In this document: positions 6,156 through 55,915 of the stretch, in pieces
How positions within the stretch are numbered: the first letter of the stretch is position 1
Layout of the letters: each line of letters opens with the position of its first letter
Origin: Candidatus Magasanikiibacteriota bacterium
GTDB lineage: Bacteria > Patescibacteriota > Patescibacteriia > Magasanikbacterales > GWA2-37-8
Assembly: GCA_041678665.1 (NCBI GenBank)
Contig: JBAYNU010000002.1
Coordinates: 5,039 to 69,038 of the forward strand
Length of the DNA: 64,000 bases
Reading direction: 5' to 3'
Notes under the pieces: model-generated
The model's database searches: none
Told to the model about the DNA's origin: nothing
The model's input: only the letters and a program-made list of their open reading frames with translations
Translations under genes and position numbers: made by a program

Positions 6156-6599
6156 ATGAAACAACAGCTGTTGATTCTGACGACGGCAGAGGAGAAGGCT
6201 GATCGGTTGAACCCCTTTCTCGGCTACTTGGCGAGATTCTTTGAGAGGCTGATATTTGCTTACGAAGAAGATGCCGCCAAGATTTCCCTGGCCGAGCGGC
6301 CGGATATGGTGTTATTTTTCTTCTTTGAATCCTCGCCGTACCAGGATCCCGAGTTCGCTCAAGGATGGAAGTGGCATACCATCGACCTGCTGAGGTGGAT
6401 ACGGAAGGGAGAGCAAGGGGAATGGGGACTCCATGTCCCTGTAGCCGTGATTAGGCACGAGGCCGGTCACGACCGGTGGGAAGATCAAATCACGGGAGAA
6501 TTGGGAAACTTTCTTCCCCCCGGGTTTATTCTCACCACCTCCGCTGGAGGGAACACGGCAGAAGAAATTCTTGCCATGCTGAATTCAATCCTCAAATAG
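6156..6599 (+). CDS. hypothetical protein encoded on a GC-rich island (about 50% GC versus under 40% in flanks)
   Basis: ORF 6144..6599. GGAGG SD is 4 nt before the second ATG at 6156. No recognisable family. Flanked by terminators. Confidence 0.5.
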   Translation: MKQQLLILTTAEEKADRLNPFLGYLARFFERLIFAYEEDAAKISLAERPDMVLFFFFESSPYQDPEFAQGWKWHTIDLLRWIRKGEQGEWGLHVPVAVIRHEAGHDRWEDQITGELGNFLPPGFILTTSAGGNTAEEILAMLNSILK

Positions 6600-6623
6600 C
6601 AAGTACACGGTGATTGCCAGCCA

Positions 6624-6651
6624 CCGGGCGTTCATAGCGCCCGGTTTTTTT
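6624..6651 (+). terminator. intrinsic terminator after GC-rich ORF
   Basis: CCGGGCG-ttcata-CGCCCGG perfect 7-bp stem followed by TTTTTTT. Confidence 0.7.
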
Positions 6652-6652
6652 G

Positions 6653-6681
6653 TTGTCAAAATAGCGGAAAAAAGGTATAAT
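6653..6681 (+). promoter_or_regulatory. sigma70-like promoter (TTGTCA-17-TATAAT) 6 nt upstream of the flippase ATG, implying a leaderless or near-leaderless mRNA
   Basis: TTGTCA at 6653-6658, TATAAT at 6676-6681, ATG at 6688. Confidence 0.4.
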
Positions 6682-6687
6682 TTTATC

Positions 6688-8118
6688 ATGTCCTACACCG
6701 TCGCCCAAAACACCTCCTTTCTAACCATTGCTTCGGTTTTACAAAAAGCCATTTCTTTTGTTTATTTTACCATCATCGCACGCCTGATTGGAGTAGAGAA
6801 CACCGGCGTGTATTTTTTTGCCATTGCTTTTACCAGTATTTTTTCCGTGGTGGCGGATTTTGGTTTGGCTTCGGTGCTCACGCGCGAACTGGCCAAAGAC
6901 CAAGGGCGTTCGCAATCGTATATCAATACCATCCTTTGGTCAAAAATTATTTTTGGTTTGGTGGCCTACGCGCTCATAGCGGTGGCCGTCAACATTTTAA
7001 ATTATCCCACTATCCTCAAAGACCTCGTTTACCTGTCCGGCATTACCATGTTTTTTGACAACTTGCACATGGTGTTTTACAGCGTATTTCGAGCGCACCG
7101 CAATTTGGTTTATGAAGCCATCGGGCTGGTCGGATCGCAAGTACTCACTCTCGTTATCGGTACGGTGGCGCTATTTGGCGGGGGAGCACTCTACTGGCTT
7201 ATTTTGGCCTACACCATTCCCGCCATCATCAACGCCGTTTATTCCGGATTTTTCGCGCGCCGCAAATTCGCGTTGCGTTTCAGTTTTTATTTTGACCGCG
7301 CCGTATTCAAATTATTTTTTCTCATGGCCGTGCCGTTTGCCTTAGCCGGCATCATCACACGTCTGTATGCGTACAGCGATTCGCTTATCATGTCCAAATT
7401 GCTTTCCGCCCGAGAGCTGGGGTATTGGAGCGTGCCGTACAAAATCACTTTCGCCTTTCAATTTATCCCTATGGCGTTATCTGCCAGTATTTATCCGGCT
7501 TTTAGCGCGTTTTTCTTACATTCTCCTCATAAAATTTCCGATTTATTCGCCAAATCTTGGCGCTACCTGTTTACTATTGTTTTTCCATTAGTTATTGGCA
7601 TTATTGTTTTGGCCAAGCCGACAATTCATTTACTTTATACCCCAAGCTATAACGCGTCTGTTCCGGTTTTACAAATTTTAGTGGTTGGTTTAGTTTTTAT
7701 TTTTCTTAGTTTTGTTACCGGTGCTTTTCTCAACGCCACCAATCGCCAATCCATTCAGACTGCTTTGATGGCCATCGCTTTAGCCATCAATTTAGCTAGC
7801 AATATTATTTTGATTCCACGTTTTGGAATTATCGGCGCCGCCATCTCCGCTTTAATTAGTAATTTAATTTTGTGGTTAAGCGGGTATATTATCGTTCAAA
7901 AAATAGCCCGTATTAATAGCGGTGAAATTATAAAATATTTTTTACAAACATTTATTCCGGCGGTAGTAATGGGAACGGTGGTATATTATTTGAGTGCGCG
8001 CATCTATTTTATTTGGACCATACCGATAGGAGCGGTGGTATATTTTATATTACTGTTCTTAACCGGTGGAATAAATATTGGATTATTAGTAAAAAAGTTC
8101 AAAGATATTAAGTCTTAA
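6688..8118 (+). CDS. polysaccharide biosynthesis protein / oligosaccharide flippase (MOP/Wzx-like)
   Basis: about 14 TM helices, polysaccharide-biosynthesis-protein family architecture; start chosen at MSYTV (ORF track begins at 6610). Confidence 0.7.
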   Translation: MSYTVAQNTSFLTIASVLQKAISFVYFTIIARLIGVENTGVYFFAIAFTSIFSVVADFGLASVLTRELAKDQGRSQSYINTILWSKIIFGLVAYALIAVAVNILNYPTILKDLVYLSGITMFFDNLHMVFYSVFRAHRNLVYEAIGLVGSQVLTLVIGTVALFGGGALYWLILAYTIPAIINAVYSGFFARRKFALRFSFYFDRAVFKLFFLMAVPFALAGIITRLYAYSDSLIMSKLLSARELGYWSVPYKITFAFQFIPMALSASIYPAFSAFFLHSPHKISDLFAKSWRYLFTIVFPLVIGIIVLAKPTIHLLYTPSYNASVPVLQILVVGLVFIFLSFVTGAFLNATNRQSIQTALMAIALAINLASNIILIPRFGIIGAAISALISNLILWLSGYIIVQKIARINSGEIIKYFLQTFIPAVVMGTVVYYLSARIYFIWTIPIGAVVYFILLFLTGGINIGLLVKKFKDIKS

Positions 8119-20405: not shown

Positions 20406-21980
20406 TTATGATATTAATTTTTTAATAGCTATTTTGATTCTGTTTATAGTTTCGTCTTTTTTCAGAACTTCAGCAATTTCAAATGGCCCCGGTGATTTAT
20501 CTTGTCCAGACAGGGCAACTCGCAGAGGCCATAAAATCTCTCCGTTATTATAATTATTTTCTTTAATCCACTCCCCTATTTTAATTTCTAAATCACTCTT
20601 ATTCCAAGATTGAACACTAAAAGTATTCAGCAACTCTTCTAGGCCCGGTAAAACTTTTGTCACAGTCTCCATATTACTCTTTTTCCATACCAAAAGCGAG
20701 CTGTCATATTCTGGTAATTCAAACACAAATGCTAATGCTTTCGGCAGCTCCGCGAGTGTCGCGACTCTTTCACGCTCCAATGGTAACGCCTTTGTTAGTT
20801 GTTCATTATTAATTGTTAATTTACTGGTTTTAAAAAAAGGTACCACTCTTTCCACTAAATTTTCTAACGGCAGGCGTTTAATATACTCTTTATTAAACCA
20901 ATCCAATTTTTCCAAATTAAATACCGCTCCGGATTTATTTACTTTGGCAAAATCAAATTCTTTAATCAAATCCTCTAAAGTAAAAAGCTCGCGATTGTCT
21001 CCCGGATTCCAACCTAAAAATGCTACAAAATTTATAACTGCTTCCGGCAAATAACCTTTTTTAATATAATCCTCCACCGCCACATCACCCTGGCGCTTGC
21101 TTAACTTGGATTTGTCGAAATTCAAAAGCAGGGGCAAGTGAGCGAATTCGGGCGGCTGCCAGCCGAAATATTTATAAAGCTGTAAATGTTTGGGAGTGCT
21201 GGAAATCCACTCTTCGCCACGACTGGCGACGGTAATCCCCATTAGATGATCGTCCACTACTACGGCCAAATGGTAAGTGGGAAAGCCATCGGATTTAATA
21301 ATTACCTGATCATCAACCAGCTCATTTTTTATTCTGATTTCCCCACGAATTAGATCATTAAAAACCGTTTCGCCGAATTTTGGCATTTTCATGCGAATAA
21401 CATGCTTTTCGCCGCCCGCGATACGTTTTTTGGCTTCCTGAGGATCAATGCCGGCGCATAAACCATCGTATCCGGTTGGTATTTTATTTTTCTGCTGCTT
21501 TTCTCGTAATTCCATTAAACGCTCCGATGAACAAAAACAATAATAAGCGTGACCTCTATCTAATAATTCCTGGGCATATTTTTGATAAATTTCCAAACGT
21601 TCAGACTGTATATATGGTCCACGTTTACCCACCTGCGCCACACAATTGTCATTCTGAGGCGCAGCTGAAGAATCCTTTTGGCTTTCAGGTGACAAGAGAT
21701 CCTTCCCTGAAGGGGTCCCTTTGGGATGCCCGCTCAGGATGACATTATCAGCGCTCTTTTTTAAAACTACGCCCTCATCTGGAACCAGGCCGGCCCAAAC
21801 TAAGGAATTTAAAATATTTTTTACGCCATCCTCGACAAATCGCTCGCGGTCGGTATCCTCGATACGCAACAAAAACTGTCCGCCGTGTTTCTTGGCGTAA
21901 AGATAGGCATACAAAGCCGTGCGCAAACCGCCAATATGCAAATAACCGGTGGGACTAGGAGCAAAACGAGTTCTAATCAT
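20406..21980 (-). CDS. gltX: glutamyl-tRNA synthetase carrying an in-frame insertion of about 33 aa derived from a palindromic repeat
   Basis: HIGG and KMSK class I motifs; 524 aa; insertion ...SPESQKDSSAAPQNDNCVAQVG... is encoded by repeat 21646..21745. Confidence 0.9.
   Translation of the reverse strand: MIRTRFAPSPTGYLHIGGLRTALYAYLYAKKHGGQFLLRIEDTDRERFVEDGVKNILNSLVWAGLVPDEGVVLKKSADNVILSGHPKGTPSGKDLLSPESQKDSSAAPQNDNCVAQVGKRGPYIQSERLEIYQKYAQELLDRGHAYYCFCSSERLMELREKQQKNKIPTGYDGLCAGIDPQEAKKRIAGGEKHVIRMKMPKFGETVFNDLIRGEIRIKNELVDDQVIIKSDGFPTYHLAVVVDDHLMGITVASRGEEWISSTPKHLQLYKYFGWQPPEFAHLPLLLNFDKSKLSKRQGDVAVEDYIKKGYLPEAVINFVAFLGWNPGDNRELFTLEDLIKEFDFAKVNKSGAVFNLEKLDWFNKEYIKRLPLENLVERVVPFFKTSKLTINNEQLTKALPLERERVATLAELPKALAFVFELPEYDSSLLVWKKSNMETVTKVLPGLEELLNTFSVQSWNKSDLEIKIGEWIKENNYNNGEILWPLRVALSGQDKSPGPFEIAEVLKKDETINRIKIAIKKLIS
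21646..21745. repeat. palindromic dispersed repeat, family A copy (TGTCATTCTGAGG...CTCAGGATGACA), in-frame inside gltX
   Basis: terminal inverted repeats plus internal GAAGAATCC core shared with copies at 44400, 45579, 47714, 55814, 57744. Confidence 0.7.
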
Positions 21981-43567: not shown

Positions 43568-46500
43568 CTAAGCCCTAAATTCGCAAATATCCCTAAAATC
43601 ACATCGTCCACAAATAAATTGACTGGGGGTGGCGGCAAAATCACGAGCGTGAATACGCTGGATAGTTTCAAGCATTTTTTCTTGCACTGCGACAATTTCT
43701 TTTTCAGAACCAAAAAATGATATCTGGGAATTTTGGTTGAGATAATAAAAAGTTAATTTACTAACAACACCAATATGATAATATTCTGGAAGCGTTTTTA
43801 CAGCCAACTGGTAAATTAATAGCTGATTTTTGTCGTCGCTCGATAATTTTTCTTTACCTTTGCCGGTTTTGTAATCCACGATATGCAATGAGCCATCGGG
43901 TAATTGATCAATACGATCAATGCGACCGCTTACCGTGAACCCGCCAATTTTTATACGAAATGACCCTTCAAGTGTAACCGGAACTGTCCAGCCATTTTTT
44001 TCATTTTCTTCATAAAATTTTTTGAGCACTTCTTTGCCTTCGGTATAATAAGTGTCACGCTGACCCTTGCTTTCGTACCAATCATCAATCCAGTGTTGAT
44101 CGTAAATTTCCAACAATTCTTTAATTTCGGGTATTTTTAGGTTACCGGATTTTTTTAAGATCGTAATCGAACTGAACAATGAATCTTGGGTGGCGCTATT
44201 TAAAACGCGCGCGCGTTCATAAAATGCCTGTAAGGTTCCATGCATGCTTTGGCCAAAACTGAAATTAGCATTACCTTTGGTGGGTATGCCGACAACATTG
44301 GCCAGCTTGTATTGATACGGACAGGTAGAATATGAATTAAGCTGTGAATAAGAAAATCGTTCGGGGAGATGATAAATTGAATCAGAACGAACTTGATCAT
44401 TGTCATTCTGAGCGGAGCGAAGCGAAGTCGAAGAATCCTTTAAACTTTGCAATCGAAGGGATTCCTCCGCTCGCCCTGCGGGCTCGGTCGGAATGACAAA
44501 TTCACTTACTCCTTTTTCCTTGCTCCTTAATCCTTTCGCCTCGTATCCGAGCTCGCTCAAAAACCGACTGTTTTTTTTCTGTCGACTGCCACCATAATCA
44601 TCAGCACTGGTTAGATATAACTTTTCCTTAGCGCGGGTCATCGCCACATAAAACAACCTTCGTTCTTCTTCGATATGCTCGTCGCCTTCCGGTAATTGCT
44701 CTTTGATTAATTCAAAAGGAATTTCAATCGCTTCGGATCTCGCGCGCGATGGAAAACGTTCTTCCACCAAATTTACTACAAACACGTATTTAAATTCCAA
44801 ACCCTTGGAGCCATGAATAGTTAAAATATTCACCGAGTCAGGGGTATCCACCATTTGATGTAATGATCCCTTGTCGCCTGAATCCACAATGTAATTAAAA
44901 TGTTCCAAAAATCCAGATACGGTCGCGCCGGCTTCGGCGGTTTCATAAGCCGAAATATATTCCAAAAATTGCTTAAGCTGGTGAATTTGTCGAATGGCGC
45001 CGCGATTACCTGCTTCTTCTTGTTTTATTAAATAACTAAAATATCCACTTTCTTCCAACCACTCCACCAAAAGCGTGGTTGGTTTGCTATTACCAACCTT
45101 GGTTTGTCCAGTTTTAATCCAAGAAGTAATTTTTTGAGCAAGTTCAAATCCAGCAACGGATAAATATAATTCCGAAGCGCGCCTAAGCGACTCGAAATAG
45201 GAAACAGATTTCTTTTTGGCAAAAGAAGTTATTTTTTGGATATCCTCGGCTGGAAATTGTAAAAACGACAAATTTAACAAACGGAATATCGCGGTTGATT
45301 CGTGGTGATTATCTAATAATTTAAGAAAGTTGATACAGTCCAAAACAATGGGCTGACGATAAAGCCCGGCTGAAGCGATAAATTCGTATGGTATCCCCTG
45401 TTTTTCCAAAGCATTAATAAACGGATCGGCATGCGCGTTGGCTCTCACCAAAATGGCAAAATCATCCCAGGTCGCGCTTTCGTTGATGGTTCTGAGCCGC
45501 GCGATTTCGTCAACCACGCTTTTTACTTCTTCATCCAGTGTGGTAGAGTGAATGTGACAGACGCTCGCCGTTCGCGCGTTGTCATTCTGAGGCGTAGTCG
45601 AAGAATCCCTTCTACTTCGAACGTTAAAGGATCCTTCGCTTCGCTCAGGATGACAATTTGCGGTGAGTCGCTTATTTATTTTGAGCTTCACCTCCAACCG
45701 ATCCGGATTATTATTCTGAATAGATTTATATGCCAAATCCAAAATTTCCTGGCAAGAACGATAATTTTCATTAAGAACAATTTCTTTGGCCTGCGAATAG
45801 TCTTCTTTAAACCGTAAAATATTATTCACGCTGGCACCGCGAAAAGCATAGATTGACTGGTCATCGTCGCCAACGACGGTAAGCTGGTTTTCTTCGCCTG
45901 CAATCATTTGTACCAACTGGTATTGCGCCCAGTTCACATCCTGAAATTCATCCACCAAAATATATTTATAACGCTCGCGTAATAATTTCAAAATATTCGG
46001 TCGTTCACGCAATAATTTTATGGTGTAAAAAATCAAATCGCCAAAATCAAGCGCGCTGTTATCAAGAAGTAATTGATTATACGCGTGATAGGCGTTGGCG
46101 ATTTCGGAAAGGCGTTTAAAATCGACGGCGGCATTACTGTCATTCCCGTGAAAACGGGAATCCGCGACTTCTGGGGCAGATCCCCGCTTTCGCCTGCCTG
46201 CCGGCAGGCATGGCGGGGATGACAATGTAGAATCGCTGTCCAACTTCATCCCTTCCGCATACTCCAAATATTCTTGCGGTGTAATAAGTTCATCTTTACA
46301 TTTAGAAAAATGTTTTAAGAGTTCGTGAATATGCTTGGCTGGGTTTCCCAAAGGTCGATAATAATCCAAATCAAATTTATCTAAATTGCGCCGCACCAAA
46401 AGCCAAGCGTCGGTTTCGGTAAGTAATTTAAATTGATTAGGTAGACCAATGTCCAATCCATGATTTTCCAAAATCCGCTGGCAAAAAGCATGGAAGGTGG

Positions 46501-46756
46501 AAATTTGCATATCCACATATCCGAGCTCAAGCATTTCATCCACGCGCGTTTGCATTTCTCCGGCTGCCTTTTCCGTAAAAGTCAACGCCAAAATTTGCTC
46601 GGGAGTAGCGAGTTTATTTTCTATTAAATGTGTAATTTTTTGCGTAATTACCGTGGTCTTACCGGTACCGGCGCCCGCCACAATCAAAAGCGGGCCGGAG
46701 GCATATTCCACGGCCTGTTTTTGCGCGGGGTTGAGAGGGTATTTTGGCATAATCAT
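43568..46756 (-). CDS. UvrD/PcrA-family SF1 DNA helicase fused to C-terminal Cas4/RecB-type PD-(D/E)xK nuclease domain with Cys4 cluster; carries three in-frame repeat-derived insertions
   Basis: GAGTGKT Walker A; C-terminal GRIDRID, VDYKTGK, QLLIYQLA nuclease motifs and STCPY...CGRCDFRDIC cysteines; 1062 aa. Confidence 0.85.
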   Translation of the reverse strand: MIMPKYPLNPAQKQAVEYASGPLLIVAGAGTGKTTVITQKITHLIENKLATPEQILALTFTEKAAGEMQTRVDEMLELGYVDMQISTFHAFCQRILENHGLDIGLPNQFKLLTETDAWLLVRRNLDKFDLDYYRPLGNPAKHIHELLKHFSKCKDELITPQEYLEYAEGMKLDSDSTLSSPPCLPAGRRKRGSAPEVADSRFHGNDSNAAVDFKRLSEIANAYHAYNQLLLDNSALDFGDLIFYTIKLLRERPNILKLLRERYKYILVDEFQDVNWAQYQLVQMIAGEENQLTVVGDDDQSIYAFRGASVNNILRFKEDYSQAKEIVLNENYRSCQEILDLAYKSIQNNNPDRLEVKLKINKRLTANCHPERSEGSFNVRSRRDSSTTPQNDNARTASVCHIHSTTLDEEVKSVVDEIARLRTINESATWDDFAILVRANAHADPFINALEKQGIPYEFIASAGLYRQPIVLDCINFLKLLDNHHESTAIFRLLNLSFLQFPAEDIQKITSFAKKKSVSYFESLRRASELYLSVAGFELAQKITSWIKTGQTKVGNSKPTTLLVEWLEESGYFSYLIKQEEAGNRGAIRQIHQLKQFLEYISAYETAEAGATVSGFLEHFNYIVDSGDKGSLHQMVDTPDSVNILTIHGSKGLEFKYVFVVNLVEERFPSRARSEAIEIPFELIKEQLPEGDEHIEEERRLFYVAMTRAKEKLYLTSADDYGGSRQKKNSRFLSELGYEAKGLRSKEKGVSEFVIPTEPAGRAEESLRLQSLKDSSTSLRSAQNDNDQVRSDSIYHLPERFSYSQLNSYSTCPYQYKLANVVGIPTKGNANFSFGQSMHGTLQAFYERARVLNSATQDSLFSSITILKKSGNLKIPEIKELLEIYDQHWIDDWYESKGQRDTYYTEGKEVLKKFYEENEKNGWTVPVTLEGSFRIKIGGFTVSGRIDRIDQLPDGSLHIVDYKTGKGKEKLSSDDKNQLLIYQLAVKTLPEYYHIGVVSKLTFYYLNQNSQISFFGSEKEIVAVQEKMLETIQRIHARDFAATPSQFICGRCDFRDICEFRA
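44400..44499. repeat. family A palindromic repeat copy, in-frame inside the helicase gene
   Basis: TTGTCATTCTGAGCG...GAAGAATCC...CGGAATGACAA. Confidence 0.7.
45579..45656. repeat. family A palindromic repeat copy, in-frame inside the helicase gene
   Basis: TTGTCATTCTGAGGCG...GAAGAATCC...GGATCCTTC...CGCTCAGGATGACAA. Confidence 0.75.
46138..46225. repeat. family A variant copy (TGTCATTCCCG...CGGGGATGACA, internal GCCTGCCGGCAGGC palindrome), in-frame inside the helicase gene
   Basis: terminal IRs; related fragments at 36410-36480, 31320-31345, 46763-46790. Confidence 0.65.
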
Positions 46757-46892: not shown

Positions 46893-47183
46893 ATGAAACA
46901 CAACGAAAGAGTCATCAATGCCGTGGTAATAGGGGCATTGATACTGGTATTCCTCCTGTGGTGGGGGCTAGCCAATGACTACGCGTCTTTTAAAAAGATG
47001 TGCGCGTTGTCAGAAGAAGCAGCTTGTCGTGAGGCAGGTTATGCTCCGCCCATCGTATGGAGCATGAATGAGAAAGCGCTCTTTTGCCATGACGACAAAG
47101 GGCTAAAACACCAAATAAAGATTCCAGCCTGCAACTGCAAGTTGGACCCTGGAGCGAAAGAATGCCGCTTCTTGAAAAAGTAA
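46893..47183 (+). CDS. hypothetical small secreted or membrane-anchored Cys-containing protein
   Basis: 96 aa, N-terminal hydrophobic helix, 6 Cys; strong AAGGAG SD; elevated GC. Confidence 0.5.
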   Translation: MKHNERVINAVVIGALILVFLLWWGLANDYASFKKMCALSEEAACREAGYAPPIVWSMNEKALFCHDDKGLKHQIKIPACNCKLDPGAKECRFLKK

Positions 47184-47186
47184 AAC

Positions 47187-47227
47187 AGACCGTGCAATCA
47201 GGGAGGATTGCACGGTCTCTATTTTTA
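47187..47227 (+). terminator. intrinsic terminator (copy 1 of a duplicated 52-nt segment)
   Basis: AGACCGTGCAATC-agggag-GATTGCACGGTCT 13-bp perfect stem followed by TATTTTTAT. Confidence 0.8.
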
Positions 47228-47303: not shown

Positions 47304-47636
47304 ATGAAAAAATATAAATGGGCAGTAGTATATTTATTTTTGGTCTTGCTCTTTTGGCAACTCGGCAATTTATTAAATGCCCACACCGAAAAGCTCAAAG
47401 CAGGTTTCATACTTTCGCAAGAAGCTTTATCGCTCTATTGCTATCATCGCTTCGGCGATGAAAGTGAAAAAGTAATGATAACAATAGGCGACACACAGCT
47501 GGAAAAAAAAGATTATACGATGTGTTTTGTCCCGCGAGAAGGGGCTCTCTACTTTATTGTGAGCCTAAATCAATGTACGAACACGCAGGACTATGACGAC
47601 TGCATGTTCCTCACCGGGGCGGCGGAAGAATTTTGA
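47304..47636 (+). CDS. hypothetical small secreted or membrane-anchored Cys-containing protein
   Basis: 110 aa, N-terminal hydrophobic helix, 4 Cys; AGGAGG SD. Confidence 0.5.
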   Translation: MKKYKWAVVYLFLVLLFWQLGNLLNAHTEKLKAGFILSQEALSLYCYHRFGDESEKVMITIGDTQLEKKDYTMCFVPREGALYFIVSLNQCTNTQDYDDCMFLTGAAEEF

Positions 47637-47650
47637 GCATAGCTTCAAAC

Positions 47651-47692
47651 AGACCGTGCAATCAGGGAGGATTGCACGGTCTCTATTTTTTA
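47651..47692 (+). terminator. intrinsic terminator (copy 2, identical to 47187..47227)
   Basis: same 13-bp stem followed by T-run. Confidence 0.8.
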
Positions 47693-47713: not shown

Positions 47714-47796
47714 TTGTCATTCTGAGGAAGTGAAACGACCGAAGAATCCCTTAAATCACAAAGTCAAAGAGATCCTTCGCTTCGCTCAGGATGACA
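47714..47796. repeat. family A palindromic repeat copy (intergenic)
   Basis: TTGTCATTCTGAGG...GAAGAATCC...GATCCTTCGCTTCGCTCAGGATGACAG. Confidence 0.7.
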
Positions 47797-50673: not shown

Positions 50674-52065
<1,392 letters not shown>

Positions 52066-52434
52066 TTAAGAGTTGGTTTTAAGATAATTAATAATATGAT
52101 CTAAAAATAATTTTCCTTTCTCGATATCATCATCTGTAGTCCGATCTGGATCGCGCTTAGGCATCGCTTGGACAAACTCGATAAAATTTTCACACTCACT
52201 TCGTATTTCTGTGCTAAGTGTTTGGTCCCTTCTTAATAGACTTACTATTTCTGACGCAATACTCGAAAACCAAGCACCACGACATCTATAATTATAATAA
52301 TTAGGATGGTCTGGTTTTAAAATCTCCGACGGTATATCATCTGTCCACTTTCTGTCATCCCGTAACTCTAGGATATTCTCCAAAACTTGTTTTCTGATTA
52401 ATTCGACCGGGTATCCTTGGGTTTCTGTGCTCAT
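52066..52434 (-). CDS. hypothetical protein inserted between atpG and atpD
   Basis: 122 aa, acidic, no recognisable family; not a canonical atp operon member. Confidence 0.5.
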   Translation of the reverse strand: MSTETQGYPVELIRKQVLENILELRDDRKWTDDIPSEILKPDHPNYYNYRCRGAWFSSIASEIVSLLRRDQTLSTEIRSECENFIEFVQAMPKRDPDRTTDDDIEKGKLFLDHIINYLKTNS

Positions 52435-52439
52435 AAACG

Positions 52440-53399
52440 TTATTCCAACGCCGCCGATCCACCGGCGATTTCCGCAATTTCTTGCGTGATGCCGGCCTGG
52501 CGGGCTTTGTTAAAATTCAAATTTAATTCTTTGATCATATCGGTGGCCGCTTCAGACGCGTTTTTCATGGCCATCATGCGGGCGCTGTGTTCGCTGGCGG
52601 ACGATTCCAAAAGCGCTTGAAAAATTTGCGTTTCTACCAAACGCGGTAAAATAATTTTTAAAACCTCGGTACGATTTGGTTCAAATAAATATTCGCCTAG
52701 TTCGATTTTTGGTTCGCTTACTCCTTGTTCCTTATTCTTTATTCCTTCATTATCCCCGATCATCTTTTCCAAATCCACTTCCGACACCGGCAAAACCTGT
52801 CTTAACTTAGCCACCTGCGCGATGGCCGATTTAAAATCGGTGTAAGCCACTACCACCTTGTCGTATTTGCCGGATTCGTAATCCGCAATTATTGTACGCG
52901 CAGCCGGCAAAATATCTTTGAGCCCGGGAGTATCTGGCAGTCCGGTATAAGACGCGGTTAAATTGTATTTCATTTTTTTGGCAAATTCGGCGCCTTTTTT
53001 TCCAATTCCCAAAACATCCACCTCAATATTATCGGACGGCTCTACTACTTTTCCGGCCACGCGCTGGCGACTAATATTTTTGGGATCCTGGAGTTGCGCC
53101 GCCGTCTTGCGAATGATATTGGCATTGAAACTGCCGCACAGCCCGCGATTGCTGGTAATCAAGATCACTAATAATTTTTTCACCGGCCTAATATCCATAA
53201 GAGCAATGCCTTCGCGCTCGCCTTTGGAAAGATTTACCAAAAGATCCCAGGCCATTTTGGCATAGGTGCGCGTGTTTTGCGCCGCTTCCACCGCTTTTCT
53301 CATCTTGACGGCGGACATCATTTCCATGGCTTTGGTAATCTTTTTGGTATTACCCACGGATTTGATGCGACGTTTGATTGCTTTGGTATTTACGGCCAT
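52440..53399 (-). CDS. atpG: F1 ATP synthase gamma subunit (contains a family-B repeat-derived segment)
   Basis: N-terminal IKRRIKSVGNTKKITKAMEMMSAVKMRKA; start taken at MAVNTK (ORF track extends to 53408 with a non-ATG start). Confidence 0.9.
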   Translation of the reverse strand: MAVNTKAIKRRIKSVGNTKKITKAMEMMSAVKMRKAVEAAQNTRTYAKMAWDLLVNLSKGEREGIALMDIRPVKKLLVILITSNRGLCGSFNANIIRKTAAQLQDPKNISRQRVAGKVVEPSDNIEVDVLGIGKKGAEFAKKMKYNLTASYTGLPDTPGLKDILPAARTIIADYESGKYDKVVVAYTDFKSAIAQVAKLRQVLPVSEVDLEKMIGDNEGIKNKEQGVSEPKIELGEYLFEPNRTEVLKIILPRLVETQIFQALLESSASEHSARMMAMKNASEAATDMIKELNLNFNKARQAGITQEIAEIAGGSAALE

Positions 53400-53425
53400 A
53401 CTTAACAATATACAAAATACATGGA

Positions 53426-53797
53426 TTACGATACACTTTCTATTTTTTCTTCTAATTTATCTATTGTCACCCAAATCATTTTTCCTATTTCATTAGACAT
53501 TTCCAAACCGACATTATATTCATCTTTACTAATCCAGTTCTGAATAAACGCGAAATATATTATATACTTACATTCTTGCGACGAACCATGTGATATCTCA
53601 TAAAAATTTAACTTAACTTTGTCTCGCCTACGCGCGTATCCCTCAACATAATTCAACATTATAGACATTGATGCTCGGCGCAACTGCGAACTAACGCCAT
53701 ACAATTCATTACTTGGAAAATTTTTCACTATCTGATAACAGTATAAAACGAATCTATTAATTTTATTTTTCAACAATACATGAAATTTTCCCTCCAT
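53426..53797 (-). CDS. four-helix-bundle protein (23S rRNA intervening-sequence protein family) inserted between atpA and atpG
   Basis: LRRASMSIMLNYVEGYARR...HGSSQECKYIIYFA core matches the TIGR02436-type four-helix-bundle family; flanked by inverted repeats. Confidence 0.75.
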   Translation of the reverse strand: MEGKFHVLLKNKINRFVLYCYQIVKNFPSNELYGVSSQLRRASMSIMLNYVEGYARRRDKVKLNFYEISHGSSQECKYIIYFAFIQNWISKDEYNVGLEMSNEIGKMIWVTIDKLEEKIESVS

Positions 53798-55406: not shown

Positions 55407-55799
55407 TTATGATAATTTTTGTTTTAATCGCGCTAATTGTCTTTTTACACTCGCATCAAAAATAACTTCATCGGACTTAACTACTACTCCGCCAATAATA
55501 TCTTTATCTACAATCGGTGTAACTTCGCCTTGACTGGAAAAAACATCACCAATTTTAATTAATTCCTTATCGCTCATGCCACGAGCCGTTACCACATCCA
55601 AAGACACTATCCCCTGTTCTTTTTTGGCGTATTTTACAAATTCAGCAATTACCCGTTCGGCTTGTTTTAATTTATGCGCGCGCGCCAAAATTTTTACAAA
55701 TTCCGCGAGGATAATATGTAATTTTTCACCCTTCAAATCTTTGGTCAGCTCATACAAAGCTTTGGCGTATTGGGTTGTAGTGGTTTTCTTTTTGGGCAT
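55407..55799 (-). CDS. atpH: F1 ATP synthase delta (OSCP) subunit, short form
   Basis: OSCP-like helices; start placed at MPKKK because the 28 codons upstream are the translation of repeat 55814..55915. Confidence 0.7.
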   Translation of the reverse strand: MPKKKTTTTQYAKALYELTKDLKGEKLHIILAEFVKILARAHKLKQAERVIAEFVKYAKKEQGIVSLDVVTARGMSDKELIKIGDVFSSQGEVTPIVDKDIIGGVVVKSDEVIFDASVKRQLARLKQKLS

Positions 55800-55813
55800 A
55801 ATTGTTTTCGTTG

Positions 55814-55915
55814 TTGTCATCCTGAGTGAGCGAAGCGAATCGAAGAATCTGTGATTATTCGCCGATAAATTCTTCGACTTCATTCACCTTTGGCTCATTT
55901 CGCTCAGAATGACAA
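55814..55915. repeat. family A palindromic repeat copy, atpF-atpH intercistronic
   Basis: TTGTCATCCTGAGTGAGCGAAGCGAATCGAAGAATC...GAATTCTTCGAC...CGCTCAGAATGACAA. Confidence 0.7.

Follow-up and report, generated by a model that had tools for sequence, protein, structure and literature searches.

Between the F1 gamma and beta genes (atpG and atpD) of a Candidatus Magasanikbacteria ATP synthase operon lies a 122-codon open reading frame, ORF122, which is probably a passenger gene: a lineage-specific representative of an uncatalogued protein family, inserted into an operon that is permissive and highly expressed, where selection maintains it for a function that has nothing to do with ATP synthase. 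The stretch of DNA analyzed (hereafter the window, all 64,000 nucleotides of it, from contig JBAYNU010000002.1) comes from a metagenome-assembled genome of the Patescibacteria, or candidate phyla radiation (CPR), in which the gene was deposited as hypothetical protein WCX97_01065. Its minus strand holds a complete F-type ATP synthase operon, whose atpI-like, atpB, atpE, atpF, atpH, atpA, atpG, atpD, and atpC genes run from ~58090 down to 50170. We infer passenger status, rather than a role as an ATP synthase component, because members of the family elsewhere adjoin unrelated genes and because the atp operons of Patescibacteria repeatedly host inserts.

An earlier, sequence-only reading of the window had described an acidic 122-aa protein encoded on the same strand between atpG and atpD, which the coordinates and an isoelectric point of 4.93 (23 Asp and Glu vs 17 Lys and Arg residues) confirmed. 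It had given the flanking gaps as 5–11 nt; the 5-nt spacer was right, but the second measures 12 nt, one more than stated. An orthologue 75% identical to ORF122 occupies the same slot on a 572-bp metagenomic contig (L001), which carries, in order, the end of atpG, the ORF, and the start of atpD. Across 114–122 aligned codons (Nei-Gojobori), the two genes differ by ~0.13 nonsynonymous (dN) and ~0.93–1.0 synonymous (dS) substitutions per site (dN/dS ~0.14), compared with a dN of 0.022 and a dS of 0.41 in the 58 flanking atp codons. Replacement sites in ORF122 thus evolve ~6x faster than those of the F1 genes, yet clearly under purifying selection. Given the same-slot orthologue, this selection, and a family of distant relatives, ORF122 is a genuine gene under selection. 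A chance ORF in an expanded atpG–atpD spacer would fit the bare annotation as a hypothetical protein and a GC content below that of the flanking atp genes; it is refuted, and next to impossible, in view of the dN/dS ratio, ~70 distant homologues with conserved motifs, and a high-confidence AlphaFold2 model. The 3′ end of the gene is noteworthy: its last ~40 nt and the 12-nt spacer are near-identical in the window and L001, even though a 1-nt indel there shifts the C-terminal frame (KTNS-stop vs KPTLNT-stop, respectively). This suggests that the constraint falls on the nucleotide sequence, as the translation-initiation region of atpD, and not on the peptide.

The family to which ORF122 belongs is difficult to see. 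A word-indexed homologue search returned only ORF122 itself and the single orthologue, and the wider family emerged solely from an exhaustive hidden Markov model (HMM) search that covered 1.84 billion protein representatives, seeded with these two sequences (E ≤ 0.001). This search yielded 73 proteins, two of which were repeat-protein artefacts, leaving ~70 true members, nearly all 105–135 aa and mostly 115–125 aa long. A profile built from 72 sequences matched ORF122 with an E value of 8e-38 (hmmsearch). Alignments of 55–72 members, numbered here according to the window protein, share the motifs R..[DE][DE][IL]P, DPNY..YKCR, and T.EDI..AN..LD, and we refer to them as the DPNY-YKCR family. Following a variable charged N-terminus, the conserved columns are R25; [DE]32-[DE]33-[IL]34-P35; D43-P44-N45-Y46; Y49-K50-C51-R52; [FW]55-F56; F84; T100-x-E102-D103-I104; N108; L111-D112; I115; and L118. 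ORF122 carries R25, D32, D33, I34, P35, P44, N45, Y46, Y49, C51, R52, T100, D103, I104, L111, and D112, and departs from the consensus, together with its L001 orthologue, by D43H, K50R, and N108K.

Searches against Pfam, NCBIfam, PADLOC, PHROGs, and PDB sequences gave ORF122 no match (empty or chance-level results only), in keeping with its earlier description as a protein of unknown family. When 55 relatives were scanned one by one against Pfam and NCBIfam, they shared no model, each weak match being confined to one member, and the family profile found only chance matches among PDB sequences (the Max bHLH-zipper protein and a ribosomal protein). A literature search on this family or on insertions into CPR atp operons returned nothing relevant. 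Every taxonomically named member belongs to the Patescibacteria, including other Ca. Magasanikbacteria; most members derive from unbinned metagenome contigs, and almost all clusters at 90% identity are singletons. The DPNY-YKCR family is rare and fast-evolving, appears confined to Patescibacteria and, to judge from these searches, appears previously undescribed, with no Pfam, NCBIfam, or PDB relative.

Elsewhere, the family shows no consistent association with atp genes. We read a further 15 loci of the family, adding up to 108 kb, part of them found with a degenerate DNA pattern for DPNYxxYKCR, which retrieved 13 loci comprising nine true members and four chance matches (L086, L089, L091, and L093). 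In tblastn searches with the AtpA, AtpG, AtpD, and AtpC proteins of the window, no atp gene was detected at any of the 15. The neighbors differ at every family locus read (Table 1), with no conserved adjacent partner gene; for ORF122 itself, PADLOC recognized 0 families. In four of the ~15 contexts, the gene does adjoin cation-handling proteins: F1 gamma and beta in the window itself, a P-type ATPase in L088 that bears a heavy-metal-binding domain, the Na/Ca exchanger of L095, and CorA in L099. Carboxylates (D32, D33, D43, E102, D103, and D112) also abound at the conserved site. ORF122 could on these grounds be a small protein of the cytosol that binds or senses cations or metals, tied to ion-translocating machines generally rather than to F1 specifically. 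We consider this very unlikely, though worth noting as a lead: the sample is too small for statistics, several of the neighbors in question are 385–607 nt distant or encoded on the other strand, ion transport plays no part in most contexts, and the protein has no known metal-binding motif or family match.

The atpG–atpD junction itself was surveyed in 80 related atp loci obtained from an AtpG scan (one genome per GTDB species), 74 of which hold both genes. The spacer has a median length of 27 nt and is ≤150 nt in 65/74 loci, which bears out the earlier statement that this adjacency is highly conserved. That statement needs qualification, however, as ~4 other Patescibacteria junctions clearly hold unrelated inserted ORFs (L045, L066, L075, and L030). 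The operon of L003 is interrupted at other junctions, by an uncharacterized ORF between atpA and atpG and, from atpD to atpC, by a cyclophilin-like gene that is flanked by two genes of the four-helix-bundle IVP family. From these inserts it follows that Patescibacteria atp operons tolerate and repeatedly acquire unrelated passenger genes. The DPNY-YKCR profile detected no family member in the 80 loci. In the two closest relatives among them, the atpG–atpD spacers measure 81 nt (L002, 66% AtpG identity) and 71 nt (L003, 70%) and contain palindromic hairpins but no remnant of ORF122. The sequence-only reading had held that absence of the gene from all close relatives would favor a selfish insertion over a functional partner; the gene is indeed missing from the nearest relatives at the species level (66–70% AtpG identity), but the one truly close relative keeps it. 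As a separate observation, long perfect palindromes occupy the atpG–atpD spacers of the close relatives L002 (4967–5047), L005 (4958–5052), and L007 (4970–5058), for example CAGCCAGAGGCTGATCAGCCTCTGGCTG in L002 and GTCATTCC...GGAATGAC in L005; they may be repetitive extragenic palindromic (REP)-like elements, or else hairpins that serve in attenuation or processing between gamma and beta.

The AlphaFold2 model of ORF122, computed from a 55-sequence alignment, has a predicted local distance difference test (pLDDT) score of 93.7 and a predicted template modelling (pTM) score of 0.86, and places the protein in the four-helix-bundle class. The predicted helices span residues 10–25, 53–69, 75–93, and 101–121, the N-terminal nine residues are of low confidence, and a long, confidently modelled loop between helices 1 and 2 (H1–H2 loop, residues 26–52) bears the DDIP and DPNY..YKCR motifs. 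Structural comparison indicated a generic fold without a specific structural homologue. Column by column, the family alignment shows neither a conserved histidine nor an ExxH/ExxE pattern, and identities as a histidine phosphotransfer (HPt), HEPN, hemerythrin/ferritin-like, or MazG-like protein were ruled out for this reason. In the CheA P1/HPt domain, the phospho-accepting histidine sits on helix 2, whereas the family lacks a conserved histidine, and the structural scores of that domain against ORF122 were no better than those of de novo designed bundles, i.e. a generic similarity. HEPN/KNTase-C domains are characterized by an Rx4-6H motif; the ORF122 family lacks this motif, any conserved histidine, an adjacent MNT/antitoxin partner, and a Pfam match.

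A conserved charged and polar cluster on the H1–H2 loop and in the N-terminal portions of helices 2 and 4 (R25, D32, D33, N45, Y46, Y49, K/R50, R52, T100, E/D102, D103, and D112) forms a putative binding surface in the model. The likeliest role of ORF122, a tentative guess from a generic fold, is to bind a ligand or partner through this surface, possibly as a dimer. One family protein, P0003 (245 aa, from a Logan contig of 3679 nt), is a natural tandem duplicate of the domain within one polypeptide, and the functional unit of the family may accordingly be dimeric.

With no atp gene at the 15 other family loci and no family member in the 74 related junctions, the proposal of the sequence-only reading that ORF122 is an ATP synthase regulatory or assembly factor found no support in the comparative evidence. 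A narrower version would have ORF122 co-opted after insertion, either as a lineage-specific F1 regulator that inhibits hydrolysis, as zeta, IF1, and AtpTheta do, or as an assembly chaperone, its position between gamma and beta ensuring matched expression. We regard this as unlikely. The gene is tightly embedded, with spacers of only 5 and 12 nt, and a second lineage has retained it in that slot under purifying selection, while D43H, K50R, and N108K could reflect neofunctionalization; the idea nonetheless has no comparative, sequence, or structural support. The closest parallel is the zeta inhibitor of α-proteobacteria (DUF1476, PDB 2LL0/5DN6), a lineage-restricted supernumerary protein of ~100 aa that, like ORF122 with its nine low-confidence residues and subsequent bundle, is small (~100–120 aa for the pair) and combines a flexible N-terminus with a soluble four-helix bundle (PMC9317440). 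However, neither the DUF1476 profile nor the PDB zeta chains gave a sequence or profile match, and zeta was not among the top structural matches. Moreover, zeta is encoded outside atp operons and has a strictly conserved inhibitory N-terminus, whereas the N-terminus of ORF122 is variable and its family is unlinked to atp genes. Other small F1 regulators are AtpTheta of cyanobacteria (bioRxiv 10.1101/2021.07.30.454416) and the epsilon C-terminal domain, both of the kind named in the earlier analogy, and mitochondrial IF1. These are single helices or helical hairpins, in contrast to the predicted four-helix bundle with a structured loop, and no homology was found; neither IF1 nor the suggested analogues epsilon, zeta, and AtpTheta showed any link in sequence or fold.

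Three points weigh against passenger status. The slot has been kept in two lineages despite substantial synonymous divergence between them, so that specific co-expression with F1 could be advantageous and not just tolerated. The substitutions D43H, K50R, and N108K fall at polar positions conserved across the family and would be compatible with an altered role in this lineage. Finally, the other contexts number only ~15 and lie mostly on short contigs. By analogy, one could go further and picture ORF122 as a Magasanikbacteria-specific F1Fo subunit or regulator, recruited from a carboxylate-rich four-helix-bundle family that may modulate cation-translocating machines, and hence an independent counterpart of zeta, IF1, and AtpTheta in ultra-small episymbiotic bacteria; this combined scenario strikes us as highly improbable.

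As the sequence-only reading had soundly proposed, ORF122 can sensibly be expected to be co-transcribed with the F1 genes, because it lies on the same strand with spacers of 5 and 12 nt and because promoter-like (27 vs 21.5 expected) and terminator-like (13 vs 10.5 expected) matches in the atp operon are at chance level. The passenger interpretation would then run as follows. In one Magasanikbacteria lineage, ORF122 would have lodged between atpG and atpD and, having no promoter of its own, would be transcribed as part of the F1 message. Its 3′ end and the 12-nt spacer would now act as the translation-initiation region of atpD, and the gene would ride in a strongly and constitutively expressed operon without being a component of ATP synthase.

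The passenger might instead be selfish, that is, a mobile cassette, toxin–antitoxin, or defense-type gene spreading into highly expressed operons, as the IVP gene of the same operon might do. The family is patchily distributed, with each member at another genomic site, often separated by gaps of 1–18 nt from genes of housekeeping operons and almost always alone in its 90% cluster; one member adjoins a C5 DNA methylase and a helix-turn-helix (HTH) gene. The IVP gene lies 1 kb away, and a closely related copy is found elsewhere in the L003 operon. Against this, the boundaries of ORF122 show no direct or inverted repeats (no target-site duplication or terminal inverted repeats), and neither Pfam and NCBIfam nor PHROGs and PADLOC revealed a nuclease, transposase, integrase, or defense domain. 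The DPNYxxYKCR pattern had no match in 2.9 million viral contigs, tblastn against 50,697 phage genomes found no family match, and no partner gene is conserved. The gene is under purifying selection and stably positioned in both orthologues, it is unrelated to the IVP family, and tiny intergenic gaps are ordinary in compact CPR genomes. Its base composition is native: GC at third codon positions (GC3) is 0.309 in ORF122 vs 0.514 in atpG and 0.480 in atpD, the eighth lowest of 62 window genes and within the spread of the window (0.375 ± 0.061), a normal value that is uninformative on recent transfer. A selfish cassette is therefore quite unlikely. Of the alternative in the sequence-only reading, a second selfish insertion, what survives is a lineage-specific insertion in an insertion-tolerant operon; the gene is not kin to IVP, and with no flanking repeats, no nuclease, native composition, and purifying selection, no feature points to a selfish nature.

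That reading had also pointed to a neighboring four-helix-bundle gene, which Pfam and NCBIfam matches identified as a 23S_rRNA_IVP/TIGR02436 protein. The resemblance to ORF122 is evident, as IVP proteins (PF05635/TIGR02436, Avd-like) are ~120-aa four-helix bundles scattered in CPR, with a copy inserted in this very operon. Their conserved motifs are wholly different, however, and 0/55 DPNY-YKCR members matched PF05635, TIGR02436, or bAvd. We also considered ORF122 as a diverged copy of the neighboring IVP gene and rejected this candidate: hhalign gave a probability of 0.2% against a local IVP alignment (shallow, three sequences). The window IVP has a close homologue (phmmer E 7e-58) in L003, the nearest GTDB relative, at another position in the operon, after atpD; the L003 copies lie at 6464–6838 and 7587–7994. 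Such differing positions suggest mobility of IVP genes in Magasanikbacteria, inside an atp operon or from one to another.

Table 1. Features of the window around ORF122, inserts in related atp operons, and gene neighborhoods of other DPNY-YKCR family members.
Feature or locus	Position	Strand	Description	Basis or gap
ORF122	52066..52434	minus	ATG start, 122 codons/aa, acidic	ORF listing and raw sequence
Spacer, atpG stop to ORF122 start codon	52435..52439	minus		5 nt
Spacer, ORF122 stop to atpD start	52054..52065	minus		12 nt
atpG	52440..53408	minus	F1 gamma, upstream neighbor of ORF122	ORF listing; tblastn vs relatives
atpD	50674..52053	minus	F1 beta, downstream neighbor of ORF122	ORF listing
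23S_rRNA_IVP/TIGR02436 gene	53426..53797	minus	Four-helix bundle, between atpA and atpG	Pfam and NCBIfam matches
L045	4981-6303		atpG–atpD insert: two unrelated ORFs	
L066	2099-3356		atpG–atpD insert: two unrelated ORFs	
L075	767-1465		atpG–atpD insert: 232-aa membrane protein	
L030	4876-5192		atpG–atpD insert: small membrane ORF	
L003	2939-3994		352-aa uncharacterized ORF between atpA and atpG	
L083/L084			trxB-like gene, family member, cobA-like gene, then peptidase M50 gene and rpsL-rpsG-fusA-tuf	Gaps 1 and 5 nt
L097			groES-groEL, then family member	Gap 18 nt
L096			Family member, gene without assigned function, pyrH, frr	
L090			C5 DNA methylase and HTH gene, then family member	
L088			Family member upstream of P-type ATPase with heavy-metal-binding domain	
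L095/L098			Methyltransferase, family member, Na/Ca exchanger	
L099			Family member adjoining CorA (opposite strand)	
L100			NYN, then family member	
L101			Family member, then FolD	
L082			Family member, then PPDK	
L085			Small uncharacterized genes, family member, giant surface protein	

Several repeats were observed elsewhere in the window. Palindromic repeats resembling REP sequences or Rickettsia palindromic elements (RPE) (GTCATTCTGAGGCG...CGAAGAATC...GATCCTTCGCTTCGCTCAGGATGAC) occur at ~21646–21685, 44419–44448, 45579–45655, 47740–47796, and ~55800, the last of these upstream of atpH. Two copies lie in frame inside a 1062-aa UvrD-like helicase ORF (43568..46756), where they encode peptides such as HPERSEGS and SLRSAQNDN, recalling the Rickettsia elements inserted in coding genes. 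The longest ORF of atpH (55407..55883) includes 28 codons ahead of a likelier start (MPKKK...), and the extension (…FFDSLRSLRMTT…) corresponds to a translated palindromic repeat, for which reason the annotated atpH N-terminus is probably wrong. A perfect 44-nt hairpin-containing repeat, AAACAGACCGTGCAATCAGGGAGGATTGCACGGTCTCTATTTTT, is present at 47183–47226 and 47647–47690, following the small ORFs 46893..47183 and 47304..47636; the two copies probably represent terminators that were duplicated together with a small-gene cassette.

A small hypothetical gene wedged into an operon is ordinary for CPR genomes. The present finding is of modest importance. Were ORF122 a lineage-specific F1 regulator after all, it would represent a fourth independent solution to the control of ATP hydrolysis and a handle on the poorly understood bioenergetics of CPR bacteria. 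Since the atpG–atpD adjacency and the F1 operon as a whole are repeatedly interrupted in CPR, reading function from guilt by association is unreliable in these compact genomes. With a high-confidence predicted fold and a clear conserved polar site, the DPNY-YKCR family could be entered in family databases as a new one of unknown function.
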